Shown here one piece after another: positions 4,236 to 41,217 of a DNA stretch of 64,000 nucleotides. Source of the stretch: Ignavibacteria bacterium (GTDB lineage: Bacteria; Bacteroidota; Ignavibacteria; Kapaibacteriales; Kapaibacteriaceae). How positions within the stretch are numbered: position 1 is the first letter of the stretch; the number at the start of each line of letters is the position of its first letter. The stretch lies in NCBI GenBank assembly GCA_016707005.1, contig JADJIQ010000005.1, positions 460,585 through 524,584 on the forward strand, written 5' to 3'. The notes under the pieces are model-generated. The model was given only the letters and a program-made list of their open reading frames with translations. It searched no databases and had not been told where the DNA came from. The position numbers and the translations under genes were made by a program.

Positions 4236-6266
4236 ATGAATCAGTCGGTACGGTTGGTGATTTGTGTTTGTGCATTCGTTCTTGGGATGATCTCTCTTGG
4301 CGCACAAACGAATGATACTTTGGTTTACTTAAATATGTACCGAGTTTTTGAGTATGATTTTCGAATTGAGAAGGTGCGGATGAACTTTGCATATGTCGAC
4401 AGTACGTTCATTTTTGGACTTTATGATGATGGGACCATCTTGTCCGGTCCGGCAGATGCTCGGGTTCAACGAACGTTACTCTCTCCAACTGCCTCGGTCT
4501 TCGTACCGGATACTGACACGCTCCTTGCCCTAGATTGTGGCGGTCTGTGGCTTCTGCCTATTGGATCCGATGAGCCCCGTACTCGCATCATGACCGTTTC
4601 AACAGACAGCAGGTTTGTGACGGCGATCGATCATGGTTTTGCATTGAGACGTGGGGGCAAGGTCTATGTCCACCACGGGTACGCTTCAGAACCGAGTGAT
4701 TCAATTGAACATCCGGAGACCGATGACTATTGGTCTGTTAGTGCAGACGGGAAGAGATCTGCATCATGGGGGTTGGGGCCTACACCGGCAACCGTGCAGT
4801 GGTCTGTAGGTGATGTAGAAACTGTTGATCTGTCTACCAATGGATACACGAGATGTGCTGTGCTGTCGGATTCCGTGATCGCAGCCTGGAATTCGAACCT
4901 GTTTATCTCCCGCGACCGCGGGCTTACATGGCACCACTACAGAGCACCGGAGATCGATCCATCATTGCCAGCCGAGGAGATTACCTATCGATCGTTCCGC
5001 AGCATTGAAGTGAGAGGCACGGATATCTATGTGGGGTTTGTGCCGGAAAAGCTAACCGAGATGTATCACTACTTCTCTTCTGATCTTGGCCTCACATGGC
5101 GGAGATACACTCCTGCAACAGCGCCCGTCCACAACAATGCCATTCCATACAGGGCCGGCATTGCCTCTCCTCGCAATGCTGCAGGCGTCCGATTAGTTAC
5201 CGATACAGATGGTACACGCATCGTAGAATCATTGTGTGAGATTCATGAAGCTGAAGGTGCCTGGAATGAGTACTCCATCGTGGAGCAGCGCGTGTCCGTA
5301 ACGGACACACTCTATACCTGGAGCCACACACTTGACTCCTGCATTGCCTTTGACCCGGGTGCAGACAGCACAACGTCATGGATTTGGTTCAACAATGGGA
5401 TACTCCTTACGAAACAACACTCTGAAACCATCTTCACTGAACGTGCCCTCCCAACTAGCCCCCTTCTCTCATGTTGGGTAGTTGATTCTGTAACAGCGAT
5501 CATCAAGGGTGAGGAAGGGGCGTATGTAACACATGACGCAGGAGCAACGTGGACGGCAGATTCCACCTATGATGGACTGCTTGCCTTTACGCCACTTATG
5601 AACGAAACACAACTCAGTCTCTGGCGCACGGCAACTGCCGGACTTGAGATCCGCTCATCGGATTCGATCTCACCGAATGGCACTCTTGTTGCCAGCCTTC
5701 CCAATACCGAAGCATCACAATTCATGATATCCAGGAATGGGGCTTCTGGTTGTGTGGTTCAGGCCGTAGGCGGTTCTGAATGGACCAGTCTTTCCATCGA
5801 GAACTTCACAGATCCAGGGTCGAACGAGCAGTTCTCAGACCACATGGTCCGATTCGCAGACAGCCTCACATCCAGATTGGCCACCGGACCGCAGCTCAAT
5901 GAAACAACCATCATCCCTCGGATCCACGAAGAACATGGATGGGTATTTGGAATCTCAAACGACGCCGAAGTCGGACTTCGGCAATACGCCATCCCCGTAG
6001 GAGTATCTGAATCAACTTCTATAGAGTCAGCATTGTCCATCTTCCCCAACCCAGCAAAAGACCTGTGTGTTATACGGTCCACGGACGGTACAGAGATCAC
6101 ATCGATACAGGTGTATTCTTCGATTGGCACCCTTGTGCTTTCTCAAACTCCTAACGGTTCGGAAGCACAACTTGACACCTCCACTCTTCCGGCTGGTGTA
6201 TACCACCTCTCCGTCATCGGTCCGGTCATCGGGCACACCTCCTCCCGAATCTGCGTAACCCCGTAA
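4236..6266 (+). CDS. Secreted protein with BNR/Asp-box repeats (glycosidase-like or Ycf48-like beta-propeller) and a T9SS C-terminal sorting domain.
   Basis: It has a signal peptide and Asp-box motifs (SRDRGLTW, SSDLGLTW, HDAGATW). The C-terminus (SIFPNPAKD...GVYHLSVI...) matches the Por-secretion tail pattern. Confidence 0.75.
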   Translation: MNQSVRLVICVCAFVLGMISLGAQTNDTLVYLNMYRVFEYDFRIEKVRMNFAYVDSTFIFGLYDDGTILSGPADARVQRTLLSPTASVFVPDTDTLLALDCGGLWLLPIGSDEPRTRIMTVSTDSRFVTAIDHGFALRRGGKVYVHHGYASEPSDSIEHPETDDYWSVSADGKRSASWGLGPTPATVQWSVGDVETVDLSTNGYTRCAVLSDSVIAAWNSNLFISRDRGLTWHHYRAPEIDPSLPAEEITYRSFRSIEVRGTDIYVGFVPEKLTEMYHYFSSDLGLTWRRYTPATAPVHNNAIPYRAGIASPRNAAGVRLVTDTDGTRIVESLCEIHEAEGAWNEYSIVEQRVSVTDTLYTWSHTLDSCIAFDPGADSTTSWIWFNNGILLTKQHSETIFTERALPTSPLLSCWVVDSVTAIIKGEEGAYVTHDAGATWTADSTYDGLLAFTPLMNETQLSLWRTATAGLEIRSSDSISPNGTLVASLPNTEASQFMISRNGASGCVVQAVGGSEWTSLSIENFTDPGSNEQFSDHMVRFADSLTSRLATGPQLNETTIIPRIHEEHGWVFGISNDAEVGLRQYAIPVGVSESTSIESALSIFPNPAKDLCVIRSTDGTEITSIQVYSSIGTLVLSQTPNGSEAQLDTSTLPAGVYHLSVIGPVIGHTSSRICVTP

Positions 6267-6423
6267 CCATGTAACCCCGTAACCATGTAACACCGTAACC
6301 ATGTAACACCGTAACCCCGCCACATCCCAACACCGGGCGAGGCGGGGCCTCGCCCCTACGCCGTAACCCCGTAACCATGTAACCCCGTATCTCCGTATCT
6401 CCGTATCTCGGTATCTTCCCGAT
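6267..6423. repeat. Octamer tandem repeat array (CCGTAACC/ATGTAACA/CCGTATCT units) with an embedded GC-rich hairpin.
   Basis: About 16 octamer units flank the perfect 9-bp palindrome gggcgaggc-ggg-gcctcgccc at 6339-6359, which is terminator-like for the upstream plus-strand gene. Confidence 0.85.
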
Positions 6424-7452
6424 ATGGCTACTACCCGTACGCGCGTTGTTGAACTCTCTGAGCACACACCTGCCCAGGTGATGCTTTTTGGACTGATGTC
6501 TATCACGTGTTCCGTCCTGCTGTTCACGCTTGTGGCGGCGCCGGCAATGGATGCATTCTTCGCTGCGTTTCTCCGAAGTGACGTGATCCGTGATGGGTCT
6601 CAGGTAACGTATCGGATAGCGGAGAACCGCGACGATGAGGTTGTCACAACCGGCACCTTCTCTACGTGGGCACTGGTCGATCCACGCGAACGTAAGACGA
6701 TCGATGCAGCACGCGCCACGGTACCTGCAGGCACATCAACAGCCCGGTATCATGCAGAATATGTCTTCACTCCGGCCGTTGCTCTAGCACCATTGGTGAT
6801 CGTAGGGGGCTTTGTGATCGCGGCCCTTCTCACAACGTTGTTCGGTGGCTTGGCCGGATTTGTCCGCCAGAAGATCGAACGCGAAGTGCTCAACGCCATG
6901 GATAGGCTTGCCATCAGCCAATACGGCGATCACACGCCGGAGGAGATCAAGTCCATCACACGCGACATCCTGAATGCTGATCTGCGAAGACTACATGATC
7001 TGGCGGACTCATATGAGATTCCGTTCTTCGATCTTGAGATGTTGCGTAATGCCCTTCGGTGGCGCGATTCAAAAGGTCTCACGCGGCTGATGCGCACACA
7101 TGACGCCATCAAGTTCTACATGCGCGAGTATTTTACCGACCGTTACAGTAATGCTGTTCTTGGTTTGGTCTACATCGGCGCAGCCATCCTCATCATCGTC
7201 ATCGGCATACGTGGTTTGAAGTTCCTCCCGGCAACGGATCCCTCGGTTGTCCTTGGTGCTCTTGGCCTTGAGTTCATGCTGCTCATCACATATGCGATGG
7301 TGCTCATGTATGGTCGGACGGAAGAAGATGTAGCAGATGCCCATCGCGAATCCCGTGGCCATGGAAGTGCAACGGATGCCGACGCGGAGCATCTGCTTCG
7401 CGCGTTCCTGGCCGTGCCTCGTGCGTCCAAAGACGAAGGGGAGCGTAAATGA
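6424..7452 (+). CDS. Hypothetical integral membrane protein with about 4 TM helices.
   Basis: Hydrophobic helices VMLFGLMSITCSVLLFTLVAAP, LAPLVIVGGFVIAALLTTLFGGLAGF, LGLVYIGAAILIIVIGI and VVLGALGLEFMLLITYAMVL are present. Its stop overlaps the next gene's start (ATGA). Confidence 0.6.
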   Translation: MATTRTRVVELSEHTPAQVMLFGLMSITCSVLLFTLVAAPAMDAFFAAFLRSDVIRDGSQVTYRIAENRDDEVVTTGTFSTWALVDPRERKTIDAARATVPAGTSTARYHAEYVFTPAVALAPLVIVGGFVIAALLTTLFGGLAGFVRQKIEREVLNAMDRLAISQYGDHTPEEIKSITRDILNADLRRLHDLADSYEIPFFDLEMLRNALRWRDSKGLTRLMRTHDAIKFYMREYFTDRYSNAVLGLVYIGAAILIIVIGIRGLKFLPATDPSVVLGALGLEFMLLITYAMVLMYGRTEEDVADAHRESRGHGSATDADAEHLLRAFLAVPRASKDEGERK

Positions 7453-9443
7453 TCGCGGTTCCTGCCGGACGTGAGAACGTATGTTCTGCTCTTACCAAAC
7501 GTATCGATGCATGGAGCACGGGCTCAGGCGGCGTAGTGGTGATCTCAGCTGAACCGGGCATGGGCAAGACAACCCTGCTCGATTGGATGGAATCAAAACT
7601 TGCCAGTGATCACCCTGGCGTTGTTGTCCGCGTTGATTGCCGTCCTCCTATTGGCGCTATCAATACAAGCGCCATACAGCCCCTTCAACCGTTCGGGGCA
7701 GCAATTGAGAAACTCTATCTTCAATCTGGTCAAGCAGCACGCAAACGTCTTGCCGTGAACATCGGCATGAGCGTTCTGGCTTCCATCCCTATCGCCGGCG
7801 ATCTGTTCTACGCGGTTAAGGCCATCTCGCAGGATGTGAACGAATACAAGCGCGAAACGGCTGCGATGCAGGAGAAGAAACGTTCTGCTGTAGCGGAATG
7901 TGTGACCACTCTTCGCACTATCGCCGAGAAGTCGCCGTTCATTCTTCTGGTCGACGAAGCCCAATGGTCGGATTCGCAAAGTGTAGAGGTTATCCGCCAG
8001 CTCGTGAACACCCTGGGCTCAACGCCGCTGTTGATCGTCTGGTGCGTGTCACCTTCCATGGCACAACGGTCCAATCTTCCGTTATCCATGTTGCTTCGCT
8101 CCGATGACATGCGTGCAGCAACGATCAACCTAGAGCCGATCGGGCAGGAACATGTGGCCGCTGTTGTTCAACAGATACTCCCGACTGCACAGATACCCGA
8201 CACTGTCCTCAAGACCATTTTCGATCGCTCGGGAGGCAACCCGGGTATCGTGACCGAATATGCTCGATTCCTGCAGGGGGCTGGCCATCTCCGCCCGGAT
8301 GGGACGATCGATGAGCATGTGTTTGACTCGATCAAGATCGACAGTACGGATCACCCTGCAACGGATGTGATCCTGCGCGACATCACAGAAGACGATGCCG
8401 TCCTCCTCTCTCTCTGTGCAGCAGAGGGTCAGGAATTCACGGCGTTTCTGCAAGCAGCACTCTCAAACACTGATGTGCTGTCGATGATCCGCTCGCTTCG
8501 GCGACTACAACGAACCACCGGACTCATCCGCAGTATTGGCACCCGCGCGCGCTATGGCGTTAAGACCACAGCGTACGAATTCGAACAGAGCTTCCCGTAT
8601 ACCTACTTCCTGCACCGTCCGGAATACGAAGAGCGCAAGAACATCCATCAGCGTATTGCCGAGATCTTGTCGCGAGAATATGCGTCAACACAGATCGATG
8701 AGTTACGCGGACAACTTGCTGCGCACATCGCAGCACATGGCGCAGAAGCAGAGGACAACGTCATGGTAGAGCGTATGCTCACCGTGATGGCTGATGAAGC
8801 TGAACGTTCTGGTTCGCACGACATCGCCTCATACATCCACTCAGAAGTCCTGCCACCATATGCTGGACTGATGAGCAGCGCCGCTGTAAAGGGTGTGGAC
8901 GTCAAAACAGGTGAAGATGATGCGGAAAGTGATGGATCTGCCTACTCAACCGGTCAGCCCCTTCCCGTTGTTGTTCGAGAGATCTCGGATGCCATCGTGC
9001 AAGGTAGGGCCAATGAGGCGCGAACGGCAGCCATCAGAACGTTGGAGACACACGGTGGACTCTCTCGTCACGAACGCGTATTGCTGACGTGTCTTGCTGC
9101 ACGTGCATGTGTGGATCTTGGGATGCTTGATGATGCCGATACCTTCATGCGATCTGTGGCTTCTCTTTCCGACGTCTCTCCGTCAGATCACTGCTACATG
9201 AAGAACGTAGAGGGGGCTATCGAGCTCGCTCGTGGTAATAGTGCCGCTGCCTCTACCTGTTTTCATGAAGCTGCACGCCTTGCCGAGAATCTCCCGGTCA
9301 ACGTGCGCGTGATGACGCTTGGCAATATCATTCTGCATCTGCGTGCAGCCAATGATCGATCCGTTGATCGATATGAACACACTGTGCGCCGTCTTGCATC
9401 CGTGCATGGCTGGCCCGGTGTTCGCGCAGATCTTGGTCTTTGA
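7449..9443 (+). CDS. P-loop NTPase of the AAA_16/STAND class with a C-terminal TPR-like helical region.
   Basis: It carries Walker A (GEPGMGKTTLL), Walker B-like (ILLVDEAQWSD) and a GGNPGIV motif analogous to GNPLF in AAA_16. It is translationally coupled to the upstream membrane protein. Confidence 0.7.
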   Translation: MIAVPAGRENVCSALTKRIDAWSTGSGGVVVISAEPGMGKTTLLDWMESKLASDHPGVVVRVDCRPPIGAINTSAIQPLQPFGAAIEKLYLQSGQAARKRLAVNIGMSVLASIPIAGDLFYAVKAISQDVNEYKRETAAMQEKKRSAVAECVTTLRTIAEKSPFILLVDEAQWSDSQSVEVIRQLVNTLGSTPLLIVWCVSPSMAQRSNLPLSMLLRSDDMRAATINLEPIGQEHVAAVVQQILPTAQIPDTVLKTIFDRSGGNPGIVTEYARFLQGAGHLRPDGTIDEHVFDSIKIDSTDHPATDVILRDITEDDAVLLSLCAAEGQEFTAFLQAALSNTDVLSMIRSLRRLQRTTGLIRSIGTRARYGVKTTAYEFEQSFPYTYFLHRPEYEERKNIHQRIAEILSREYASTQIDELRGQLAAHIAAHGAEAEDNVMVERMLTVMADEAERSGSHDIASYIHSEVLPPYAGLMSSAAVKGVDVKTGEDDAESDGSAYSTGQPLPVVVREISDAIVQGRANEARTAAIRTLETHGGLSRHERVLLTCLAARACVDLGMLDDADTFMRSVASLSDVSPSDHCYMKNVEGAIELARGNSAAASTCFHEAARLAENLPVNVRVMTLGNIILHLRAANDRSVDRYEHTVRRLASVHGWPGVRADLGL

Positions 9444-9464
9444 ACGATAATCTTTGAGTTCTCT

Positions 9465-12320
9465 ATGAATCGAACCCTGACGCTTCTTTGCGCCACCGTA
9501 TTCCTCGTTGTCTCTGCATTGTCACAGACTGACAATCCACATGCACGGCATATGGAGCGCGCTCATCCAACGCCGCTTCGCAACGTGAACTACGATGGTC
9601 TCACGTACATGGTGCCGATGCTCACGGAGAAGGTCTATCCAAGCCTCTTCCTCAACGTGAACATGATCGTTGAAGAGACAGATCCGCTTCCGGCACAGAA
9701 CGAATCGTCCATCGCCGTCAACCCACGCAACCCACGTCAGCTCATTGGTTCGGCTGTAGACTACCGGCTCAGCTCCTCTACATGGGCCTACTACTCAACT
9801 GACGCTGGTGCAACGTGGGAGAATATCACACTCGGCACTGCTCGTATCGGTTGGGCATCAAGCAATGACCCATCTGTGTGTTTTGATCATAACGGCAAGG
9901 GATACCTTGTCTACGGTGGTTTCAAACGCGAAGGCAATGTGCAGTTCGGCGAGAATGGCGTCTTCATCAGCTCCACTACGGATGGTGGAAAGACGTGGGG
10001 CATGAAACACACGGCCGTGATCATACACACCGGTCCACAGACGGCCGACTCAACATTCGAAGACAAGTACTACATCCACGCCGACACAGCTGCTACATCA
10101 CCGTATCGTGGTCACCTCTACATTCCGTGGAAACGTGTTGTCAACCGCGACTCTTCAACACAGATCGTGATCTCGAAAAGCACGGATGAAGGGGCTACAT
10201 GGTCCACCCCCACCTACGTTAGCGATCGGTTCCCGCGTACATCTGAAGACACTACTTTCGGACAAAGTTTTCCTCTTGCACGCACAGGTCCCGATGGTTC
10301 TGTGCACCTTGTTTGGAACAGTGGAACAGAAGACGCGCTTCGATACGCACGATCTGTAGATGGTGGTGCTACATGGTCAGCACCGCGGATCATTCACACC
10401 TACAAGCCCTTTGGTACAAAGAGCACGATCAACGGTCAAACCAACTCCCGTGTAAAAGGTGTTGTGCGAGCGGAGTGTTATCCAACACTAACCATTGACA
10501 ACACCGGCGGCGCTCGCAACGGATGGTTGTATCTGACGTGGGCAGCAGACAACTACCCCAACGTCTACTTCTCGCGTTCAACAGATAATGGTACTACGTG
10601 GTCACCTGCTCGGATCGTGCATAGCGACACCACGAACGACCAATTCTGGTCATGGATCTCTCTCGATCCAACCTCCGGAGAGATCGCCATCATGTATAGT
10701 GACAGTCGCGATGACGTAGACAACATCCTCGTCAACACCTACGTGAGTTGGTCATCAGATGGCGGTACCACCTGGCTTGATCGTCGCATCGGCGATGATG
10801 TGAATGACCTACGTCGCAACCCATTCCAAGGCAACACCTTTGCCGGTGACTATTCCGGCTGCGACTTCTACAACGGCGTTGTCTATCCATCGTGGGTGGA
10901 TATGCGCAATACGTATGTGAACCCTGCCGACAACGATGTCTTCACAGCCATTGTAGATACACGAGCACCAGGAGCCCCTTCCACTTTTGCTGCTACAACC
11001 ATTCCCAACCGTCCAACACAGATCGACCTCACGTGGTCTGCTGTAACATCACTTGCGTATGGTCAGCCCCTTCCCCCCGATGCACGGATCATCATCCGCA
11101 GAGACGGATCACCGATCGATACACTCGGCGTAACGGCTGTAGCAATGACCGATACGGGGCTCATCAAGTACCAACTCTACACCTATACACTTACTGTTGT
11201 TGCAGGGGGCAGATCAAGCACACCACGCGTTGCATCGGCATATGCAGGGGGCTCCAAGGAACTCCAGGCGCCACGATTGGTCTCTGCGGTAGGAAGCACA
11301 AGTCGAGAGACCGAGATCGTTGTTGACCTGCCGAAACTTCGTCTCGACAATGTGACACAGATCATCAACCTCGCTGGGCTTGAGTCTGCGCTGACCGAGC
11401 AAAAGTTCGCAAAAGCACTTGCCGTGACCGACACCGGTACTCGCACAACGCATCTCGTTACGCCGTCAGAGGACGGTTGGTATCGCGTGCAAGAACGAGT
11501 CCTTGATTCAGAAGGCAATACGAGTCCGCTCAGTGACTCACTTTGGATCTACACCGGATCGTTGCAGAGCGATGCGCAGAACTTCACCACAGAACCGCGG
11601 TACCACAAGATCCTCGGCAATTGGGGCAATGCAACCAACTTCTATCGGTCTGCTCCGGCATCGTATGCGCATAGTCCTAGTGGTGCATACCTTCCAAACA
11701 GACGGGACACCGTGCAGATATTTCCGTTTGCCGTTTCGTCGGCCGTGATCCCTGAATATCCAACTCCGGCGCTAACGGTTTCCGTTGCAGCCTTCATTGA
11801 TCCAAGCGACACGATGTTCCTTGAGGTATCAACCAATGGAGAGCGCGGTTCCTACTCAGTGCTTGAATGGTGGAACTCCTCGCGAGATGCGCGCTGGAGC
11901 GATACTACCAAGGGCGAAGACGCATGGCGGACATACACAATGGTTCTGCCATACGAGCAAAAAGACGACACACTTCACTTCCGCCTGCGCTTCCGAAGCA
12001 ACGCATCACGGCAATCAGATGGCTTCTACATGGATGATCTTGCTTTTGACTACATCAACAGCGTCGACGAAGAACAGTCAGCTATCTCCACCATCGCCCC
12101 CATTCCAACCTCGGCATTTGTGAACGTCACCTTGCAGAACGATGCACCCGTCACACGCTGCGTGGTTGTTGATGCCCAAGGCACAACCCACAACGTTTCG
12201 TGGTATCAGTCGGGCCTCTCCCTTATTGCTAACGTTCAGCACCTTCCCCAAGGTGTCTATACTATCGCTATCGATCGTACTTCGTCTACGTCCCACTCCC
12301 CATTCCTCATTCTCCGCTAA
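9465..12320 (+). CDS. Secreted BNR/Asp-box repeat protein (sialidase-like or glycosidase-like) with an FN3-like region and a T9SS CTD.
   Basis: It has a signal peptide and multiple Asp-boxes (STDGGKTW, STDEGATW, SVDGGATW, STDNGTTW, SSDGGTTW). The C-terminus has a CTD pattern (GVYTIAIDR...). Confidence 0.75.
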   Translation: MNRTLTLLCATVFLVVSALSQTDNPHARHMERAHPTPLRNVNYDGLTYMVPMLTEKVYPSLFLNVNMIVEETDPLPAQNESSIAVNPRNPRQLIGSAVDYRLSSSTWAYYSTDAGATWENITLGTARIGWASSNDPSVCFDHNGKGYLVYGGFKREGNVQFGENGVFISSTTDGGKTWGMKHTAVIIHTGPQTADSTFEDKYYIHADTAATSPYRGHLYIPWKRVVNRDSSTQIVISKSTDEGATWSTPTYVSDRFPRTSEDTTFGQSFPLARTGPDGSVHLVWNSGTEDALRYARSVDGGATWSAPRIIHTYKPFGTKSTINGQTNSRVKGVVRAECYPTLTIDNTGGARNGWLYLTWAADNYPNVYFSRSTDNGTTWSPARIVHSDTTNDQFWSWISLDPTSGEIAIMYSDSRDDVDNILVNTYVSWSSDGGTTWLDRRIGDDVNDLRRNPFQGNTFAGDYSGCDFYNGVVYPSWVDMRNTYVNPADNDVFTAIVDTRAPGAPSTFAATTIPNRPTQIDLTWSAVTSLAYGQPLPPDARIIIRRDGSPIDTLGVTAVAMTDTGLIKYQLYTYTLTVVAGGRSSTPRVASAYAGGSKELQAPRLVSAVGSTSRETEIVVDLPKLRLDNVTQIINLAGLESALTEQKFAKALAVTDTGTRTTHLVTPSEDGWYRVQERVLDSEGNTSPLSDSLWIYTGSLQSDAQNFTTEPRYHKILGNWGNATNFYRSAPASYAHSPSGAYLPNRRDTVQIFPFAVSSAVIPEYPTPALTVSVAAFIDPSDTMFLEVSTNGERGSYSVLEWWNSSRDARWSDTTKGEDAWRTYTMVLPYEQKDDTLHFRLRFRSNASRQSDGFYMDDLAFDYINSVDEEQSAISTIAPIPTSAFVNVTLQNDAPVTRCVVVDAQGTTHNVSWYQSGLSLIANVQHLPQGVYTIAIDRTSSTSHSPFLILR

Positions 12321-12366
12321 CCCTATCTAACATTCTAACACTCTAACCCTCTAGCACTCTAACGCA
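12318..12366. repeat. Short tandem octamer array of CTAACNNT units between convergent genes.
   Basis: The sequence reads ctaaccctatctaacattctaacactctaaccctctagcactctaacgc. Confidence 0.6.
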
Positions 12367-12676
12367 CCTTCACCGTCTTAATTGTGTTCGTTTGCTTCCC
12401 ATCAGACACAACAACGAGATACATTCCTTGTGCCCAATCTGCACAGTCGACCACATACTCCTGTCGCCCTTCAATAGGGCGGTATCGTGGAAGAAGGTCA
12501 ACAAGGCGAACACCGCTTGTAGATACAACTTCGAGCTGTTTAACATCTTGTTCTGAACCGCGCATTACTGAAACCGAAACAATGAGTGTTCCGTCAAACG
12601 TTCTAGGCTGTGCATCAACTGCGATACCCGATTGAAATACCGTCATTGCCACGAGTATTTGCGTAATGAACTGCAT
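12359..12676 (-). CDS. Small ORF encoding only a signal-peptide-like N-terminus plus a T9SS C-terminal sorting domain.
   Basis: The C-terminal 60 aa (GVRLVDLLP...AQGMYLVVVSDGKQTNTIKTVKVR) is a textbook CTD. Its ATG overlaps the stop of the upstream 830-aa gene (TAATG). Confidence 0.5.
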   Translation of the reverse strand: MQFITQILVAMTVFQSGIAVDAQPRTFDGTLIVSVSVMRGSEQDVKQLEVVSTSGVRLVDLLPRYRPIEGRQEYVVDCADWAQGMYLVVVSDGKQTNTIKTVKVR

Positions 12677-15129: not shown

Positions 15130-15155
15130 CGGGCTGACGCAAGCTTTTAGGCACA

Positions 15156-15875: not shown

Positions 15876-15987
15876 GGGTCCCTCCTCAATAAAGTAGAAA
15901 ATGTATAAACCGCGTTCAGCGGCATCTATCAATAAATTTCTAGGGTAGGCAAATACAAAATAGAAAAAACTCGATTCCATCAAACAC

Positions 15988-17769: not shown

Positions 17770-17872
17770 GGAACAAACTTACCCCCTCAAAGCTTTACAG
17801 GAAGGTTAAAATCAGGTAACGTCACGGGGTAGTGCGAGGGCGAACCTTCACTATCTTTCACGTGGACCCTCT

Positions 17873-24104: not shown

Positions 24105-24105
24105 C

Positions 24106-25253: not shown

Positions 25254-25331
25254 GAGGGCAAATTTACGAACTTTTCAGCCCCCATTGTCCTGATTAAGAC
25301 AGACGGTATGAGAGGTAGAGAGAGTAGACGG

Positions 25332-25537
25332 GACGTTGACGTTATGACGGTATGACGGTATGACGGTATGACGGTTATGACGTTATGACTGGTAACTAAG
25401 TAACTGCGTAACTGAGTAACTGAGTAACTGAGTAACTAAGTAACTGCGTAACTCTGTAACTGAGTAACTGCGTAACTGCGTAACTCTGTAACTGCGTAAC
25501 TAGTAACTGCGTAACTAGTAACTAGTAACTAGTAACT
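25332..25537. repeat. Largest tandem octamer array: 4 GACGGTAT units, then about 20 GTAACTNN units, degenerating into GTAACTA heptamers.
   Basis: It is read directly from the sequence. It occupies the position upstream of paaB where paaA would be expected. Its 3' part encodes the last 7 codons and stop of the gene at 25515..27818. Confidence 0.9.
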
Positions 25538-28724: not shown

Positions 28725-28766
28725 GCCAAAATAAAAAGCGGGGACGCACTGACGTGCGTCCCCGCT
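28725..28766 (-). terminator. Rho-independent terminator of the giant gene.
   Basis: A 13-bp perfect stem agcggggacgcac/gtgcgtccccgct with loop tgac is followed on the minus strand by a T-rich tract. Confidence 0.7.
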
Positions 28767-34700: not shown

Positions 34701-37700
34701 AACGGCATTGTCGCACACTACGCCTGGGCCATTGATGACCGGGTTCGGCGTTGGGTTAACGTTGACGTTGAGAGTTGTACGGTTGAGGCAACCAACAACA
34801 CTTGTTTGTGTAAGCGTGATCGTAGCATTCGGGTTAGGAGTTGTACCCCATGTTACCGTGATGCTATTGCCATTCACTGCTGTGATCGTCGATGGGTTAC
34901 CAACAACACCTGTGCCTGTTGCACCACCTGGTGTTGTGATCGTTCCACCAACAACATCCCACTTATACGTGTCGCCCGTGAAGAGCGTGGCCGTGTAGAT
35001 CGAAGTCGACGTTGGTGAACCAGTTGAATTCTGGCAAACCTGCGTTGGACCTGTGATCACTGGCTGTGGTTGTGGGTACACCGTCACGTCATACGTGAGG
35101 TTCGTCACGCAACCACCGTGTGACGGTGGAAGTGTTACAGCAAGCTGGATCTGACCGATGTTCGTGCCGCCCGTAGCGTGCCACTCTGTAACGATCGATG
35201 TTGTGTTTTGACCGCTGCGGATCACACCGACAACAGGACCAGTTGGCATGTTCCAGAGATACGTTGTTCCGGCAGGGAACACGCAACCAGGTGCACGTGC
35301 TACTGTGTACGTTGTGAGGTGCTCTTCGAAGCCACCATAGATACATGCCGTTGTTGGACCGCTGATCGTAGCATCTGCAACAGTTGGGTTGATCGTCACC
35401 GTCACAACCGCTGTGTCAGGGCATCCGAAGACGTTCGTTTCGATCATGCGGACCTTCACAGGCAATGGATTGTATACACCATTGCATGAAAGAAGGTGGG
35501 TTCCCCATGTTGTGACGAACGGATTAAGCGTACCAAAGCCTGTGTTGTTTCCAACGAGTGGAGTTGTACCTGTTGGAGGATTTGTTGTTACCGGAATCTC
35601 TACGGTGTTGTCGACAACACCAAGGATCTTCCAATCATACGTTGCAGCCCATCCACCGAAGGAAGGAGTTGCAGCCGTATATGTACCAACCGATGGACCA
35701 CATGCTGGGTTTGAACCCGAGAATGAAGCAACCGGCTTAGGATTGACGGTAACGTCCGTACCCGGAGCATCTGATACAGGGCAAGCTGAAGCTGGGATCG
35801 GACGAGCATAAACTCCTGCACCGGTGCGCAGTTGAGCGCGCACTTCGAAGTTTACGATCGTTGGAACGGCTGGGTTTGTCGGAAGAACGCTGAGAGCTGG
35901 AATCGAGATCGGACCGATCGCGCCACCAGTACCATTGAAGGTAACAGCAGGAGCCATCGAAACACCGTTGCGGAGGATCTCATACGTTACACCGTCTTGT
36001 GAACCAGCCTGGGTGAAGATCACCGGCTGTTCCCAACAAACTGGGTTCGGTGTGTAGCTATTCGCTTGAACAAGCGGAAGAGCGAAGACCGTAGCTGTTG
36101 GATGCTGCGTGAGGATCACGAAGCAAGCAGGCGGATTCGTGTTCGACGTTGCAACTACTTCATACTCGTAGTTCGCAGCGGCAAGCAGTGGATAACCACC
36201 AACTGGGTTTGTGTTGTCGGCAAGGAGGAGTGCTCCACCTGTACCTACAGCGCTAATACCAGTTGACACGAATGCTGCCGGTGGCAATGCTGCACCGGTT
36301 GCATTGTCGCGGATCTGACGACGGAAGAGTTCATACGTTACCCAGTTCTCAGATCCAGCTACTGTAACGTTTACGAGGTCACCAAAGCACACAGGCGTTG
36401 GAGCGATCGTTACAGCAAGAGCTGCATTCGGGATCTGATGAACATTAACTGTGGCATCACCTGTCGAAACGATATACGGTCCGCATACCGGAGCAAGATT
36501 AGATGCTACAACACGGAACAGATACACCGTAGGTGCAGGAGCAACAGTTGTGAAGGCAAGATCTGCTGTAGGAACAACAAAGTTCAGAGCAGCACCAGTA
36601 CCATTTTGAGCAGCAACCGTTGCGTTAGCCCATGTACCACCACCGTTGGTTGAACGTTGGACTTGATACGAGTAACCAACTTGCGAGTTTGCAAGCGTGA
36701 GTGGTGCCGTTTGGGCACCCGTGTTGCAGATGTCTTGTGGTGTAACACCAAGAGCATACTGAGTTGGGATAACATTGAGTGTGACGTTGTAGTCAGGTGT
36801 CGTTGCACCGCAACCACCAGGGTGCACTTCCGTGACCTTGATCTTTGCAGGTGACGCACCATAGAATACAACACGCACGCGTGATGCATTCAATGTGCCC
36901 GGAAGAAGCTGGCTAGCAACCGGAGCTACGTTACCAGCGATCGTTGTGTATGCACCACCATTGTTCGTTGAGTACGCAACGATATAACCATTCGATATCT
37001 GCCACGAGTACGTGTTGCCAAGTACTTGTGGAGTAGCGAAGTCATATGTGTACGTGAACGGACCAGCGTGTGGCATGCCAACCGGATCTACCAAGTTCTG
37101 GCAGACAACGTTTGGATTCAAGCCAGCAGTAGGAACATTGATAACGATCGATGGAGTTGGAACCGGGTCAACTACGAAGTTTGTCACTGTTGACGTTCCG
37201 CAACCCGAAATAGCATCAACCCCTGTCACTGTAATTGACTTCGGACCTGCACCACCAAGATTTGTGATCTGACGTGTGAGGTCGGGAGCTGGTCCAGCCG
37301 CATTCAGAACTATGCCACCACCTGGAACCCAAACATAGTTAACTCCCGGTTGGCCTGCCCCACCGTTTGTTGCCACTGCAACATTGATCGGTACCGGTGT
37401 ATTGACGCAGAATGGAAGAACCGGAGCAAATGTGATCGGAGCCGGTGCAGGACGTGCATAAAAGGTTGTGTTGGTTGAACCAACCAAGCTGACGCAGCCT
37501 GCTGCCGATGTGAGTTGTGCATTGATCGTCACGACAACGCTCTGTGGTACAAGTGCCGCGTTTTGTGGCAATTGACCCCATGTGATCGTACGTGCGACGG
37601 CACCAACTGGCTGAGCAAAAGGACTGCCAGTTACAACTGTTCCAACCGGAGCGCCAGTTACGTTAACTGCAAGCGAACCAGCCTGAGCCGTTGTGATCGT

Positions 37701-40700
37701 GTAGTTCGTCGTAGAAACTGGGTTCTGCGGGGAAGCTGCACACGCTGTTGCCACCGGTGTGATGACCGGAGCTGAAGGCACCTGGTTGATCGTGAACGCC
37801 TGCGTCACAGTTGCTGCACAAGTGGTTGTTGTGTTTGTTACTGTAAGTGTAAGCGAGTACGAAGATGTAGCAGCCGGAGGATTCGTGAATGTCACGATCA
37901 TCGTTGGATTGTTATTCACGCCAAGCGTACCGATACCGTCTACGTCAAGGGCTTCTGCCCACAAGTAGGTAGGAGCACCACCACCATTGACAAGTGCCAA
38001 TGTTGAGAACGTATGCGCTTGATTACCGCAAAGCGTTGGAGCTGGTGCACCAATGCTGAACGTAGGATTTGGGTTGATCGTGATTGTGTAGGTCTTTACA
38101 GCCGCACAACCACCTTCTGTGTATTCATGAGAGATGGTACCGGTTCCGGCAGCACCCCACTGAACACTAAATCCACCAGGACCAACTCCAGTAACGCCCG
38201 GACCACCAAGAGCATAGCCACCAACGAATGGGGCTTGTGGTGTTCCACCTGAAATTGTAAACGAATGGGACCCAGCACCTGTTGCGGTATACGCGACTGG
38301 TGCTGCTGGTGACGCACACGTTGCAAGTGCTCCAGTGAGTACAAAGGCTCCTGTAGGAGGAGTCGCAATAACAGTCACATTAAGCGTCGAGCTAGCGTTA
38401 CAGCCAAGGGCAGTACGCTCATCAACGGTAACTGTGCCTGCACCTGGGGCTGACCACTGAACAGTGATAAGCGATACACCAAGATTGACGTTTCCAGGTG
38501 TTGTTGTAGATGTTGCAGGAAGAGCAGTTGTTGTTGCTGCATTCGCTGCGACGATCGTTCCACCACCACCAGTGACCGCCCAACGATAGCTGTTGCCAAC
38601 TGTGACCGTATTGAGCGTGTATGAATACTGAATTGGGTTTGGAGCCGATTGGTATGAAGGATTACCAAGTGTGGCAGGTACAAACTGACAAGGTGTGTTC
38701 GAACCAACGATCGATGGCGTTGGGAGCGGGTTAACCGTTGTTGTTGTGCTATACGTGCGTGTGCAACCACTAGCAGTTGTTTCAAGAACAGTCATTGTTC
38801 CTGTACCAGCTGCCGTCCAGTTAAGCTGACGCGACTGATTTGCAACAACGTTTGCCGCAAGTGGTGTTCCGTTTGGATATCCGGCTGAACCGCCAGTATA
38901 TACAAATGGAAGACCTGAGGCCGTGTATGTATATGTATTACCCGCAACACCAACAAGGCCAGTTCCGCCATTGTTCGTGATGGAGTACGTCATATTCGTA
39001 CCGGCACAAACACTCGCAACTGAACCGGCTACCGCATTTGTTGGCGGAAGTGGGTTAACAGTAAAGGATGTCTGCAACACCGGTCCTGGGCAGAGATTGC
39101 CCGGCCCGTTGAAAGCCTGCACTTGGACCGTTACTGTTGCAGCCGCGGCCGGTTGTACCGGTTGATTCGTTACGGTGACGACCTTTGTGTTCGTGCTACC
39201 TGCAGGGAATGTAGCTCCGATGGTGTTCGTTACGAACGCCCATGCATAGGAACCATAACCAGCAGGAGTCGAGTAAGTCACATTGTTCGAGCCTGTTGCC
39301 ACCGCACAGATAGCACCTGGTGCTACTGTAAGAGGTCCAACCGGAACCGAATAGATCGTTACACGATTAACGAACGTGCTGATCGCTGAGCAGTTCGTTG
39401 GTGCCGGACCAGTTTCTGTTACCTGGATGTTGTAGCTCGTACCGGCGTTCGATCCGCCAGCAGGATACTGGATATCCGCGATCTGGTTCTGAGCACCCGA
39501 AAGGATGATCGTGGCACCAGGTGCTGTTGTCGACCATGCCAGTGTTGATGTAGCAATAGATGGTACAGCTACATATTGAACAGTTGCACCTTGGCAAATG
39601 TTCTGAGTACCTGTGATCGAGCCAATTGCTACCGGTTGGGCATTCGCAACAACTGCATAATCCGCAGTTTGAACCGTTGTACAGTTATTGAGCGTTGTGA
39701 TACCATAATAGTACCACGTACGATCCACCGTTGCGGCAGGAAGGGCTGTAACGAGATCCCACGTAGGTCCAGCGCCGCCAATTGTTCCAAGTGCTGTTCC
39801 ACCTGCACCTACGCAAGGCACATTTGGAGTTGGGCAGCGGAAGAAGGCTGTTTGTGTGCCAGCGAGTGCCAGCGGACCAGGAACCCATGAGTATACTTCA
39901 TTGAGGAATGGACCGCCAGCGCCAGGACGTTGGTCTTGACCAATCGTTGCTTGCGGTGGCTGACAAAGCGAGAGAAGACCGATCGTGTGTTGGTCTTGAG
40001 CTGCTTGAACGTTCAGAGCGTTGTCGTCGATCTGCTCTACGAAGATGTCGATCTGACCAGCATCTGCGTCACCTTCAAGGTGAAGGACCAGCTGAACAGA
40101 GACTGTTGCAGGATTTGGAGCACCCGGTGGGATCGGTCCCGGTGGGTTTGGATAGAAGTACGGAACATCGTCAAACGTGACGATGAGCGTTGTACCTACG
40201 AGTTCATACCAGATCTGTCCGCCAACCTGTGGCGAAAGGTCCGTATTTGCCAGGTAGATAGCATCATATGTAGCACCTGCACCCGGAGCGGCCAGATTGC
40301 GCGGGGCGATCTGAACTGCGAGTGGGTCGTTGCGGAACGTGATGAAACCATTCGAGCCTACATAGAAGCCGTCAACCGCAAGGTCAATGAGGCGTCCATG
40401 AAAACGGAATTGGCCGGCAACGTTCTGCTCAGCAGAAACTTCGTCGTCGTCCAATGCCAGATTAACCTCGGCGCCGCCTGGTGCGGCGAATGCGTAGCCA
40501 GGTGCAGCACCGTTAACAGCATAACCGATATTGATACCGGGAGCTGTCAGGGTGGCCCGAAGTGTTGTGTTCTGTCCTGCACAGACCGGGTTCGGACCCG
40601 GACTGGCCAACAGATCAACGGTTTGCGCCTTCACCGAGATGCCTGTTAGCAACCCGGCGGTCGTAATGACCGTCAACAACAGAGCCTGGAGCCAACGCCC

Positions 40701-40745
40701 CACACTCCGTTGTCGCGAAGAGAACGCGGAATCGAATCGATTCAT
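28791..40745 (-). CDS. Giant T9SS-secreted adhesin-like protein of about 3984 aa, built from dozens of Ig-like/beta-sandwich domains.
   Basis: A continuous 12 kb ORF with a signal peptide (MNRFDSAFSSRQRSVGRWLQALLLTVITTAGLL; GGAGGA SD at -4). It has pervasive repeats of about 100 aa (YSTPA..GSTYAWTVSG...TLTV.ET) and a classical CTD (RVFPNPSNGQFSIE...GVYNVVVT...VVRLVRR). Alternative starts lie at 40799 and 41012. Confidence 0.85.
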   Translation of the reverse strand: MNRFDSAFSSRQRSVGRWLQALLLTVITTAGLLTGISVKAQTVDLLASPGPNPVCAGQNTTLRATLTAPGINIGYAVNGAAPGYAFAAPGGAEVNLALDDDEVSAEQNVAGQFRFHGRLIDLAVDGFYVGSNGFITFRNDPLAVQIAPRNLAAPGAGATYDAIYLANTDLSPQVGGQIWYELVGTTLIVTFDDVPYFYPNPPGPIPPGAPNPATVSVQLVLHLEGDADAGQIDIFVEQIDDNALNVQAAQDQHTIGLLSLCQPPQATIGQDQRPGAGGPFLNEVYSWVPGPLALAGTQTAFFRCPTPNVPCVGAGGTALGTIGGAGPTWDLVTALPAATVDRTWYYYGITTLNNCTTVQTADYAVVANAQPVAIGSITGTQNICQGATVQYVAVPSIATSTLAWSTTAPGATIILSGAQNQIADIQYPAGGSNAGTSYNIQVTETGPAPTNCSAISTFVNRVTIYSVPVGPLTVAPGAICAVATGSNNVTYSTPAGYGSYAWAFVTNTIGATFPAGSTNTKVVTVTNQPVQPAAAATVTVQVQAFNGPGNLCPGPVLQTSFTVNPLPPTNAVAGSVASVCAGTNMTYSITNNGGTGLVGVAGNTYTYTASGLPFVYTGGSAGYPNGTPLAANVVANQSRQLNWTAAGTGTMTVLETTASGCTRTYSTTTTVNPLPTPSIVGSNTPCQFVPATLGNPSYQSAPNPIQYSYTLNTVTVGNSYRWAVTGGGGTIVAANAATTTALPATSTTTPGNVNLGVSLITVQWSAPGAGTVTVDERTALGCNASSTLNVTVIATPPTGAFVLTGALATCASPAAPVAYTATGAGSHSFTISGGTPQAPFVGGYALGGPGVTGVGPGGFSVQWGAAGTGTISHEYTEGGCAAVKTYTITINPNPTFSIGAPAPTLCGNQAHTFSTLALVNGGGAPTYLWAEALDVDGIGTLGVNNNPTMIVTFTNPPAATSSYSLTLTVTNTTTTCAATVTQAFTINQVPSAPVITPVATACAASPQNPVSTTNYTITTAQAGSLAVNVTGAPVGTVVTGSPFAQPVGAVARTITWGQLPQNAALVPQSVVVTINAQLTSAAGCVSLVGSTNTTFYARPAPAPITFAPVLPFCVNTPVPINVAVATNGGAGQPGVNYVWVPGGGIVLNAAGPAPDLTRQITNLGGAGPKSITVTGVDAISGCGTSTVTNFVVDPVPTPSIVINVPTAGLNPNVVCQNLVDPVGMPHAGPFTYTYDFATPQVLGNTYSWQISNGYIVAYSTNNGGAYTTIAGNVAPVASQLLPGTLNASRVRVVFYGASPAKIKVTEVHPGGCGATTPDYNVTLNVIPTQYALGVTPQDICNTGAQTAPLTLANSQVGYSYQVQRSTNGGGTWANATVAAQNGTGAALNFVVPTADLAFTTVAPAPTVYLFRVVASNLAPVCGPYIVSTGDATVNVHQIPNAALAVTIAPTPVCFGDLVNVTVAGSENWVTYELFRRQIRDNATGAALPPAAFVSTGISAVGTGGALLLADNTNPVGGYPLLAAANYEYEVVATSNTNPPACFVILTQHPTATVFALPLVQANSYTPNPVCWEQPVIFTQAGSQDGVTYEILRNGVSMAPAVTFNGTGGAIGPISIPALSVLPTNPAVPTIVNFEVRAQLRTGAGVYARPIPASACPVSDAPGTDVTVNPKPVASFSGSNPACGPSVGTYTAATPSFGGWAATYDWKILGVVDNTVEIPVTTNPPTGTTPLVGNNTGFGTLNPFVTTWGTHLLSCNGVYNPLPVKVRMIETNVFGCPDTAVVTVTINPTVADATISGPTTACIYGGFEEHLTTYTVARAPGCVFPAGTTYLWNMPTGPVVGVIRSGQNTTSIVTEWHATGGTNIGQIQLAVTLPPSHGGCVTNLTYDVTVYPQPQPVITGPTQVCQNSTGSPTSTSIYTATLFTGDTYKWDVVGGTITTPGGATGTGVVGNPSTITAVNGNSITVTWGTTPNPNATITLTQTSVVGCLNRTTLNVNVNPTPNPVINGPGVVCDNAVASYSTANNAPANSYAWTMLGGSNATITAGANQATATVLTGAIGGGNSFTLQLVETTNATTCSKTVTRTITIVPTPAPTITRLTPGGATGGSCLNQVIQYGQTDPTAGTFSYKWTATSGIISDVTGNNPGPDNGTTVYVKWNTVGTGTITLAKWHTSSQCTTTVSQNVTITNPPAPAITGPTNVCGEQIATYSTPNVVGNTYSWSFSNGSIVSGSGTNALTIKFTNPGVGSTLSSNVTVTETNTLSGCTGSATVLVTIRYQPQVQTITGPTQVCAYNAVTNPGNVAYSVANNIGATYQWTVTGATIVSGATTNAVQVRWTTIGTQTLTVVEKEATGLCSATSTLNVAVTYMPAPSITGNLNACSNSAETYSTPAVAGSTYAWTVSGTVADRTTSGLTNNSITVQWLTAGTRTLTVIETAGLCTATATANVTVTAKPAPVITRVSPLGLLNQACLDETITYSTPNGGSTTYLWTVTGGTITGVNNANAVTINWTAIGNQTLSVVETSTVNTGCVGTTSLSVSVEEQPNPVISGGTPVCSGSTQTYSVTAVAGHTYNWSITGLAADRTITTSVTGSSMSVTWNNAGSYTVSVLQTNNSGNCSRTANLVVTVQQTPTATAISRVSGTPLNQACNGETISYSTPANGASSYLWTVVGGSINGSATGNVVSVTWQTVGNNTITVTETTTGTPCFKTVTQNVAVTRMPTPTISGNLNACSNSTEVYSTPAQAGSTYAWTVSGTATDRTIASGTTNNTITVLWLTAGTRTLTVTETAGLCVVTTTANVTVTAKPTPVITRTSPAGLLNQACLDETITYSTPNLGGTTYLWTVTGGTITGVNNANAVTVNWTALGNQTLTVVETATANTGCVGTTSLNVSVEEQPNPVISGGTPVCSGTTQTYSVTAVPGHTYNWTIGGTAADRTIVSSITGSSVTVTWNNAGTYAVGVTQTNVSGNCFRSATLNVTVQQTPTATAISRVTPGGAVNQACQGQTITYSTPFVGTSSYLWTATGGVINGTATANTVSVTWQTIGNNTLTVTETTTGTPCFKTVTQNVAVSYTPTPNITGSTVVCINKEHTYSTPAVPGSTYNWVITPTNAFATIAGYPTSNTITVRWIQPGLHTMSVTETALGGFCFTTTTVNIRVNPIPTPDIQSATGYGNPITRRPGIVCNNSTHVYSVTPTPGNVFQWVVTGGTITAGSNTNQITVLWGAAGNGTIACTETVPGSDCITTDTDTILIRPTPTPVVTGQVNPCGNSVQDYTTPFVSGNAYTWTVVGGTYVNLAPNTIRVTWSAPVWPNTTAATVSVREDVADVLPAGTCFGVNTLNVTIRPIPPTPSITGPSPVCATDLSDSPATINTATYTSSIPVITAGSGSLQPSWTVTNGVIVSGQGTLTIGVQWANSGLTPITGNLTVTHTSSFGCSATGSLSVTINPLPNPVISGPRSACQNSLQNYSTPGIPGNTYSWAVSGGNIIRAGQGTPNVTVEWTLPGAATLTVTEVNGFLCTVLNTINVTVNALPNAVLTASGQTTFCQGGDVTLSAPIGFSSYIWNTGETARSIVVRTTGKYWCTVTDENGCSNSSDTIQVNVFPSTLPIIAINAPTTFCEGGSVTLTAPSGFNAYLWSNGAQTQSIVVTQSGSYTVTVADNNGCTGTSTEVDVVVNPTPAPVLTLIGSANLCSGDSVEVRAPAGFVSYTWVSTSGTNYGTARSIIIRQTDTVYCQVVDVNGCVGSSDTVGITVAPVAPPVITANGPTTFCEGGAVTLTAPAGYASYIWSNGATGRTITVQNGGEFWVTVTNNTSCPANSTKTVVTVNSLPVIPTISRMGDVLTANSAVAQSWQWFRNGTMIAGATAKTYTVALPGSYRVEIADNNTCASVSEAFDVILTDVDEDVVAGRQAELRVFPNPSNGQFSIETTITQAGPVRIELVNAVGELVMTLNEAANGGAFRTSVDMGILANGVYNVVVTTGSERWVVRLVRR
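31500..33650. repeat. Intragenic tandem duplication inside the giant gene: two units of about 1.05 kb (about 350 aa) at roughly 85-90% nt identity.
   Basis: Hand alignment shows, for example, 32221 ccgcccgttactgtccagaggtacgttgta... against 33271 ccacctgttaccgtccagaggtacgttgtg..., an offset of about 1050 nt. Protein blocks RMPAPSITGNLNACSNS... and RMPTPTISGNLNACSNS... match. Boundaries are approximate. Confidence 0.7.
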
Positions 40746-41217
40746 ACGATCCTCCAAATGAGACTTTGAAATACTGTTACTCTTACTGTTATTCTTCATA
40801 GTTGACGTGGTCTGTTCCCCATTCACAAACACCAATTGGCGCCCGAGGCGCCTTGATTTTTCAGATTGTGCATTGTCGCGTAGAGTCATAATGTCCTTCC
40901 GAACCGTTGGATTGAAACGGCACGGCGCACAACACCCCCGTTGCCAGAGGCGTGTACATCGTCGCGAAAATAGGTCGACGGAGCGGTTCCACCAAACACG
41001 ACTTTGCCACAAAGCATCATATATGCCATGGGACTAGCGTTTTTCGCGAATATGTTCTGCGTCGTCTGAGTCATTGTCTTCGATCAGCGTTGTTTTTATG
41101 TGTTGCTACGTGGTTCTACGTAGACAAACCTGTGAAACAGATTCCACACCACCAAGGACATTGGACCAGATCACGGTGGGTCACCCCCCGAAATCCAGCC
41201 CACCTTGATGGCAGGAG

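Follow-up and report, generated by a model that had tools for sequence, protein, structure and literature searches.

The 64,000-nucleotide stretch of Ignavibacteria bacterium contig JADJIQ010000005.1 analyzed here (the window) carries, between dnaK and obg, a run of genes for predicted surface proteins. An earlier note on this DNA had described positions 4236-41012 as an island packed with type IX secretion system (T9SS) cargo, and as a coordinated surface-remodeling or polysaccharide-foraging locus. Our analysis favors another interpretation: the dnaK-obg region is probably a clade-conserved neighborhood of independent surface-protein units with later insertions, and neither a polysaccharide utilization locus (PUL) nor a mobile island. 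The core would have been inherited vertically in one clade and would comprise mem342, the AAA_16 ATPase gene and BNR951; a kinase and its regulator; PKD1171 and a TonB-dependent receptor; paaBCD; coaV277 and BNR767; and the gene of a giant protein with immunoglobulin (Ig) repeats. Two low-GC cassettes, one with a hydrolase gene and BNR676 and the other with cys239, BNR817 and ctd105, would have been inserted later in this species. The co-location of these genes would then reflect inheritance within the clade combined with the acquisition of further cargo genes at intergenic sites that tolerate insertion.

The host is a Kapabacteria-like activated-sludge bacterium, and the nearest relatives of its regulator in the species collection are Candidatus Kapaibacterium/Kapabacteria metagenome-assembled genomes (MAGs). 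We compared the window with a same-species set of at least six activated-sludge MAGs (GCA_0167xxxxx), in which the regulator is 100% identical, and with four syntenic relatives (loci L008, L087, L088 and L089). The core order is the same in the window and in these four loci: dnaK, (mem, AAA_16), BNR951, kinase and regulator, PKD1171 and receptor, paaDCB, BNR767, (coaV277), the giant PKD_6 protein and obg. It is kept at identities of 87-94% for DnaK and 67-85% for the regulator and where the PKD1171 ortholog is only 41-52% identical, which agrees with the proposal that the block is not random cargo. Synteny extends only so far. The genes are scattered in more distant relatives, where BNR951 orthologs with 43-46% identity (L091, L093, L094) are placed among unrelated genes and a PKD1171 homolog with 33% identity (L090) likewise has an unrelated gene context. 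Housekeeping genes bound the neighborhood on both sides, dnaK (1069-2976, plus strand; HSP70, 899 bits) on the left and obg (41218-42246, minus strand; Obg equivalog, 448-472 bits; same position in L087) on the right. The remainder of the window is also housekeeping (DnaK, Obg, a sigma factor, RadA, phytoene synthase, the ATP synthase operon, Ddl, uracil-DNA glycosylase and a Clp ATPase), and none of the remaining window genes outside the flagged region encodes a T9SS-type C-terminal domain (CTD).

Two segments of the region, 3110-6266 and 12359-15875, are missing in all four relatives. There, dnaK directly adjoins mem or BNR951, and the end of BNR951 lies 0-42 nt from the kinase gene. GC content at third codon positions (GC3) is 0.42-0.51 in the inserted genes against 0.55-0.71 in most core genes, the giant gene and coaV277 being lower. 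These two segments are recent species-specific insertions and supply three of the eight open reading frames (ORFs) listed as T9SS cargo (BNR676, BNR817 and ctd105). The first insertion consists of a gene for an alpha/beta hydrolase (3110-4210, minus strand; Hydrolase_4 and Abhydrolase families; GC3 0.43) and BNR676 (4236-6266, plus strand), which has a signal peptide, two to three Asp-boxes and a bona fide type-A CTD. The second comprises three minus-strand genes and is positioned where BNR951 and the kinase gene converge. Its ctd105 (12359-12676; GC3 0.42) is a signal peptide plus CTD and nothing else, and every one of the six same-species MAGs has a 105-aa gene call for it. BNR817 (12676-15129; GC 0.465) is a near-orphan secreted protein with three Asp-boxes and an unsupported CTD: it matches no Pfam or NCBIfam family and, by phmmer, no PDB sequence, a word search of 5.8e9 proteins returned only the protein itself, and a full HMMER search of 1.84e9 proteins returned 33 distant representatives. 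The third, cys239 (15156-15875), is a Cys-rich secreted ORF with no family match in Pfam or NCBIfam and a weak gene call, made in one of the six MAGs (L006). We considered whether ctd105 might be a frameshifted tail of BNR817 and rejected this, as BNR817 is full-length compared with its homologs of ~800-850 aa and the two-ORF layout is identical in six MAGs.

The word island therefore applies to these segments and not to the region, since only 3110-6266 and 12359-15875 look acquired. A genomic island of secreted proteins gained by horizontal transfer would account for two sub-segments of low GC3 that relatives lack and for the near-orphan status of BNR817. It would not account for a core of typical composition that is syntenic across genera, and library, tRNA and repeat scans of the window revealed no integrase, transposase, tRNA or long flanking repeat; we regard this explanation as extremely unlikely. 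Synteny in the relatives together with the absence of tRNA, integrase and transposase points instead to a clade-conserved chromosomal neighborhood with two recent small insertions. The borders of the insertions carry no long repeats, only short tandem arrays that are also present elsewhere in the window.

Orientation, 4-nt overlaps, a 25-nt gap and a terminator divide the region into about eight transcription units on both strands: BNR676; mem342, AAA16 and BNR951; (cys239), BNR817 and ctd105; regulator and kinase; PKD1171 and receptor; paaBCD; coaV277 and BNR767; and the giant gene. A sigma-70 promoter scan found fewer sites than in shuffled sequence and is uninformative for this phylum. The four BNR proteins have no BLASTP match to one another, which suggests that they are not paralogs of one another. 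A single coordinated locus, as had been proposed, is difficult to reconcile with units on both strands, the terminator, paaBCD inside the region, the insertions and an operator-like motif found only between the regulator gene and PKD1171 (see below).

What most of these units share is the type of protein that they encode. All eight proposed cargo ORFs are present at the coordinates given in the earlier note, and the starts chosen at 15129, 21414 (the receptor) and 40745 agree with the gene calls of same-species MAGs or with a GGAGGA site that has a signal peptide after it. The earlier note had all eight ending in Por-secretion tails; seven of these tails are supported, 12676-15129 is not, and only two or three pass curated cut-offs. 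We scored them with Pfam Por_Secre_tail PF18962 (cut-off 27 bits), NCBIfam TIGR04183 (23 bits) and FlgD_ig (27 bits). Both Por-tail models exceed their cut-offs for 4236-6266 (38.1 and 35.3 bits) and 28791-40745 (34.0 and 27.6 bits). The tail of 12359-12676 passes TIGR04183 at 23.9 bits and falls below the Pfam cut-off at 21.3 bits; that of 27815-28648 passes FlgD_ig at 35.7 bits, its Por-tail scores of 23.9 and 22.7 bits being slightly below the cut-offs; and that of 25515-27818 stays below the Pfam cut-off at 22.7 bits (E 1e-4). For 9465-12320 the sequence itself reaches only 17.4 bits, yet many orthologs carry PF18962 and the family profile matches the solved 75-aa CTD 8glk_D (E 5.5e-5). 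The sequence of 17873-21388 has no Pfam or NCBIfam tail match of its own; PF18962 is found in its orthologs P0044, P0046 and P0053, and its AlphaFold2 (AF2) model terminates in a 7-strand sandwich. No tail match was obtained for 12676-15129, and PF18962 occurs in just one of the 21 members of its family.

An alignment of the tails reveals the type-A pattern, a P-x-P strand followed by G-x-hydrophobic and G-x-Y-x-hydrophobic, in seven of the eight. When a hidden Markov model (HMM) of the five supported tails was run against 627 six-frame ORFs, the C-termini of 17873-21388 (E 0.0014) and 9465-12320 (E 0.03) were top-ranked and 12676-15129 was not recovered. At the other end of the proteins, an N-terminal hydrophobic signal-peptide segment, judged by eye, is present in all eight ORFs. 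In seven its last residue is small and Gln comes next (..A|Q or ..S|Q), coaV277 (..ASGSGQ) being less clear, and these ends are consistent with the Bacteroidetes Q-rule for signal peptide cleavage sites (PMC5837995). Among BNR676, BNR951, BNR817 and BNR767, the strict Asp-box S.D.G..W occurs 2, 5, 3 and 2 times, respectively, in line with the claim that four ORFs carry multiple Asp-boxes; no other examined gene carries one, and ~0.01 occurrences are expected by chance. All seven supported cargo genes fall inside 17 consecutive genes of ~44 in the window (p ~0.01 in a rough combinatorial, within-window estimate). The cargo resembles known T9SS type-A cargo such as the gingipains of P. gingivalis and ChiA of F. 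johnsoniae, with a signal peptide for signal peptidase I (SPase I) with Gln at +1, a ~75-aa C-terminal beta-sandwich matching PF18962 or TIGR04183, and large modular surface proteins. It differs in that most tails here are divergent and below curated cut-offs, and in that the Kapabacteria-like host lineage has seen no experimental T9SS work. The product of each unit would be exported by Sec and then most probably by type IX secretion, and would probably be anchored at the surface. The cargo would be mainly of the binding or adhesin type, with propeller heads on Ig-like stalks, a giant Ig-repeat filament and one sialidase-fold propeller.

The center of the region holds a two-component system, as the earlier note had recognized. 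The kinase (15988-17058, minus strand) has two transmembrane helices separated by a loop of ~11 aa, then HisKA and HATPase_c, and the regulator (17068-17769, minus strand) is an OmpR/PhoB-family protein with Response_reg and Trans_reg_C. A PhoB/PhoR phosphate regulon system was rejected, as both proteins score below all equivalog cut-offs: the regulator reaches 252 bits with the Bacteroidetes PhoB model (cut-off 270) and 227 bits with a second equivalog (cut-off 296). For the kinase, two equivalogs with cut-offs of 500 and 334 bits give 181 and 275 bits, the matches covering the catalytic core only, and PnpS gives 315 bits (cut-off 400). Nor does the window contain any pst or phoU gene.

Divergent from the regulator gene lies PKD1171 (17873-21388, plus strand), a core gene whose product has a signal peptide, an N-terminal beta-propeller, a PKD domain, an Ig-like stalk and a C-terminal sandwich that is a probable CTD. 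It matches Pfam PKD and Ig_7, its AF2 model has a pLDDT of 86, and in its ortholog family of ~1170 aa the N-terminal propeller is strongly conserved. Its gene is followed after 25 nt by that of the TonB-dependent receptor of ~705 aa (21414-23531, plus strand), a further assignment of the earlier note that is borne out, here by a plug and a beta-barrel. L008 and L087-L089 have the same pairing of PKD1171 with the receptor. A hairpin that resembles a terminator and has a T-run (21432-21448) is located 44 nt after the PKD1171 stop, inside the receptor's signal-peptide codons, and could attenuate read-through into the receptor. An Rfam scan of the window gave no matches and thus no riboswitch before the receptor.

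In the intergenic region between the regulator gene and PKD1171 we identified a direct-repeat motif, GTTAAAATCAGGTAAC (17805-17820, plus strand), which lies over the -33 position and is a candidate operator for the regulator. The consensus of the intergenic alignment, GTTAAAAnnnGGTAAY, has two half-sites 10 nt apart and stands 31 nt upstream of a TAnnTTT box. The window has a single copy, and so does each of L001-L008, L087 and L089, always at the corresponding position; L088, the most divergent syntenic locus, is without it, and it is absent from 81 other loci. The motif would fit an OmpR-family operator that serves only the promoters of the regulator-kinase and PKD1171-receptor units and to which the regulator may bind. 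Control of the flanking genes by the two-component system, which the earlier note had raised, has a conserved candidate site in this one intergenic region and none elsewhere in the window. The system would most likely govern its divergent neighbor alone, the PKD1171-receptor operon, through this motif, and PKD1171 may capture a ligand for the adjoining receptor under such control.

A broader version of this idea is a single surface-remodeling regulon, in which the regulator and kinase sense an envelope signal and jointly control all flanking T9SS cargo. The central position of the pair, which is the same in relatives, the kinase's short outer loop, as in envelope-sensing kinases, and the high density of cargo genes would all fit. 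The sole conserved operator-like motif is nevertheless confined to one intergenic region, paaBCD and a strong terminator break up the block, three cargo ORFs are recent insertions, and distant orthologs of BNR951 and PKD1171 have no such pair as a neighbor. We consider a regulon of this extent unlikely.

The case for glycan foraging turns mainly on BNR951 (9465-12320, plus strand), a core gene that encodes a signal peptide, a 6-bladed sialidase-like propeller with five to six Asp-boxes, Ig-like and jelly-roll domains and a weak type-A CTD. It matches BNR_2 at 49.6 bits, and its AF2 model (pLDDT 86) is matched best in Foldseek by the Micromonospora viridifaciens sialidase (E 4e-17) and next by further GH33, GH145 and GH93 enzymes; 2bzd, 1wcq, NEU1, NEU2 and NanH are among the matches. 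The first ~500 N-terminal residues are very conserved in the family: the first propeller strand is an invariant QNESSIAVNP, and Y463, E337 and D135 are also invariant. In canonical sialidases, a FRIP motif in the first propeller blade supplies the first Arg of the arginine triad. None of the 42 BNR951 family members has FRIP (x-R-[IVL]-P) in that blade, and nine have it elsewhere, at scattered non-conserved positions; without FRIP at the expected N-terminal position, BNR951 is not a canonical sialidase. Aligning the family profile with PDB sequences matched only the Asp-boxes, so that the catalytic Tyr/Glu nucleophile pair and the Asp acid/base were not mappable. BNR951 thus shares with the M. 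viridifaciens and other GH33 sialidases a 6-bladed Asp-box propeller followed by Ig-like and jelly-roll domains, and differs from them in lacking the FRIP that they possess and in a sequence similarity confined to the Asp-boxes. We would describe it as a sialidase-fold propeller other than a canonical sialidase, and as a possible glycosidase.

The second core BNR protein, BNR767 (25515-27818, minus strand), combines a Ycf48-like BNR propeller, PKD_6-like Ig repeats that resemble those of the giant protein and a sub-threshold CTD. Its N-terminal 320 aa match PSII_BNR (49 bits) and solved Ycf48 structures (E 1e-11 to 1e-13). Unlike Ycf48/HCF136, it is a secreted protein with Ig repeats and a CTD, and its host is non-photosynthetic.

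A PUL-like arrangement, in which secreted BNR glycosidases free sugars that enter via the TonB-dependent receptor, could draw on the sialidase-like fold and jelly-roll domain of BNR951, on the name exo-alpha-sialidase that NCBI gives its orthologs, and on weak matches to F510_1955 glycosylhydrolase and GH74. A TonB-dependent receptor, a sensor and regulator and secreted propeller proteins are indeed found close together, as in the SusC/SusD PULs of Bacteroidota. The likeness ends there. The receptor most resembles the BtuB/CirA class (23 bits with the SusC model TIGR04056, against a cut-off of 368) and is paired with PKD1171 and not with a BNR gene; no ORF matches the SusD family; and the region holds no Pfam or NCBIfam family of glycoside hydrolases (GH), polysaccharide lyases or carbohydrate esterases above cut-off, nor any carbohydrate-binding module (CBM) family above threshold. 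There is no hybrid two-component system or extracytoplasmic function (ECF)/anti-sigma regulator of the kind seen in PULs, and housekeeping genes separate the units. With FRIP missing from the N-terminal blade throughout the BNR951 family and with BNR767 belonging to a Ycf48-like family that is not enzymatic, we consider foraging a very unlikely explanation of this locus, contrary to the earlier note. Outside the flagged region, a 454-aa ORF with a CBM9-like domain (56225-57589), flanked by the ATP synthase genes and a PfkB kinase, is the window's sole match to a carbohydrate-binding family.

The largest gene of the region (28791-40745, minus strand) encodes a giant protein of 3984 aa with a signal peptide, many PKD_6/Ig-like modules (PKD_6 in eight stretches, 193 bits) and a bona fide CTD. 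It is followed by an intrinsic-terminator-like hairpin (28737-28766, minus strand) with a 13-bp stem, 10 of its pairs GC, and then TTTTATTTT. Its positional counterparts in L087 and L089 encode 1058 and 3833 aa, respectively, and we interpret the giant protein as a filament or adhesin of variable length. A self-BLAST for repeats gave no off-diagonal matches and is uninformative. Its match to Aureispira GhpA (E 2e-79) is repeat-driven: residues 2530-2922 and 3499-3812 align by phmmer with residues 1139-4719 of the GhpA stalk only. Tens of PKD-like Ig modules together with a T9SS CTD make it comparable to GhpA and SprB-like giant adhesins, and GhpA itself is reportedly a T9SS substrate. The two differ in that the likeness is limited to the repeats of the stalk and in that length varies widely between relatives.

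GhpA is part of the ixotrophy mechanism of Aureispira (bioRxiv 10.1101/2024.01.29.577165), and the Foldseek matches of PKD1171 are headed by GhpA fragments, with 1l0q, a surface-layer fragment of a YVTN propeller plus PKD. A contact or capture apparatus can thus be imagined, in which PKD1171 with its propeller head and the Ig filament of the giant protein would serve, like GhpA, as hooks for attachment to other cells or to particles, and the E value of the giant protein's match to GhpA speaks for it. The matches are, however, restricted to repeated Ig stalk modules, the gene shrinks to 1058 aa in L087, and the window contains no type VI secretion system or other predation genes, which makes such an apparatus quite improbable.

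Two further core units lie between the receptor and the giant gene. The genes paaD, paaC and paaB (23622-25253, minus strand), whose position is kept in relatives, encode housekeeping phenylacetyl-CoA epoxidase subunits. PaaD (168.4 bits, cut-off 108.15) and PaaC (250 bits, cut-off 133.35) pass their NCBIfam equivalogs; PaaB stays below its own (74.7 against 85.45 bits) and passes Pfam PaaB (85 against 27 bits). The three genes stand together without an adjoining catalytic paaA or reductase paaE, and the same reduced set is found in L008 and L087-L089. Next to BNR767, and overlapping it by 4 nt (27815-27818), coaV277 (27815-28648, minus strand) encodes a choice-of-anchor V domain (NF041895, 96 bits) with a FlgD_ig/CTD tail. 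Its N-terminal region contains the string GCSGSGCHG, whose Cys-x4-Cys-His recalls a variant heme-binding motif.

The unit upstream of BNR951 deserves separate consideration. The product of mem342 (6424-7452, plus strand) is a membrane protein with four hydrophobic segments by hydropathy, is 56-59% identical in L088 and L089 and has no match in Pfam, NCBIfam or PADLOC. Its gene overlaps by 4 nt (7449-7452) with AAA16 (7449-9443, plus strand), which encodes an AAA_16 (STAND-like) ATPase (AAA_16, 65.9 bits). A phmmer search of PDB sequences with AAA16 returned no matches, and a metagenome scan returned a same-species fragment only. A PADLOC scan of mem342, AAA16, cys282, BNR817 and a 393-aa ORF found no defense system. 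Between Walker A and Walker B, residues 105-123 of AAA16 form a hydrophobic segment, NIGMSVLASIPIAGDLFYAV, which is kept in fused homologs (see below) and recalls membrane-inserted KAP-type NTPases.

In the window, AAA16 and BNR951 share a reading frame, with one TGA and seven codons between them, and this junction is identical in six same-species MAGs. In L089 (3375-8182) the two genes overlap as TAATG, and in L088 (3261-8072) and at least 14 homolog clusters (P0154-P0189; 1584-1636 aa in the clusters) they form a single ORF with no internal stop. At the fusion junction, the ATPase closes with a conserved ...DLGL, and a hydrophobic segment of ~20 residues begins straight after it. In 10 of 13 cases the last residue of this segment is small and the next one is Gln, mostly as AxA|Q. 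The junction therefore looks like an internal signal-peptide-like segment with an SPase I-type site. A precedent exists in FbcH (cytochrome b-c1) of Bradyrhizobium, a polyprotein with an internal signal peptide. There, too, an N-terminal portion that lies in the membrane or faces the cytoplasm is joined to an exported portion by an internal segment that resembles a signal peptide and has an AxA site. The N-terminal part here is a STAND-like ATPase, the exported part is T9SS cargo, and cleavage of the fusion is only proposed.

We tentatively raise the possibility, for which we see a modest chance, that mem342, the AAA_16 ATPase and BNR951 constitute one device. In it, a STAND-like NTPase tethered to the membrane would be synthesized along with a sialidase-fold propeller bound for T9SS export and severed from it by signal peptidase, as a polyprotein or a tightly coupled pair. 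The fused protein might instead be a bitopic receptor whose propeller is a periplasmic sensor. L008 and L087 have BNR951 and lack mem and AAA16, so the cargo protein is not strictly dependent on them. To our knowledge, no link of a cytoplasmic switch ATPase to type IX cargo has been described.

Several observations weigh against our favored account of independent, clade-inherited surface-protein units. Five of the seven CTD calls depend on sub-threshold scores or ortholog evidence. The window encodes none of the T9SS machinery (SprA, PorV, PorU, PorK-N), and T9SS in Ignavibacteriae and Chlorobi has only been suggested (PMC5837995). An order of ~14 genes kept over inter-genus distances could reflect selection for co-location instead of mere inheritance. 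Finally, a secreted protein of the BNR type arrived in this neighborhood with each of the two separate insertions, which may be more than a coincidence.

We also noted two features of the sequence that concern the window and its same-species counterparts at large. Many intergenic regions contain tandem arrays of 7-8-nt units, up to ~235 nt long, several of which have a common GTAAC/GTATC core (2980-3055, 4110-4150, 6254-6416, 12326-12363, 23529-23619, 25305-25539, 54082-54126 and 58606-58751). The same-species MAG L003 has such arrays with other units and lengths; none is found in L008 or L087-L089, and eight other loci that we checked contain a few unrelated short ones. In addition, BNR951, AAA16, the receptor and paaC are split into short ORFs in the same-species MAGs L001 and L004 and are intact in the window, L003, L005 and L006; the split ORFs are most likely frameshift errors of those assemblies.

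Overall, the locus is made of known kinds of element, namely T9SS cargo, BNR propellers and Ig-repeat adhesins. It reveals T9SS-type cargo in the little-studied Kapabacteria, with divergent CTDs that are often missed by curated models, and documents a cargo style of propeller-headed, Ig-stalked surface proteins alongside a GhpA-like giant filament. It also illustrates how new cargo genes enter a stable chromosomal framework through small insertions, and provides one concrete candidate regulatory link, between the regulator motif and the PKD1171-receptor operon. The only element that is possibly new in kind is the ATPase-cargo fusion, which, if functional, would be a new way to couple a cytoplasmic NTPase to a secreted protein.

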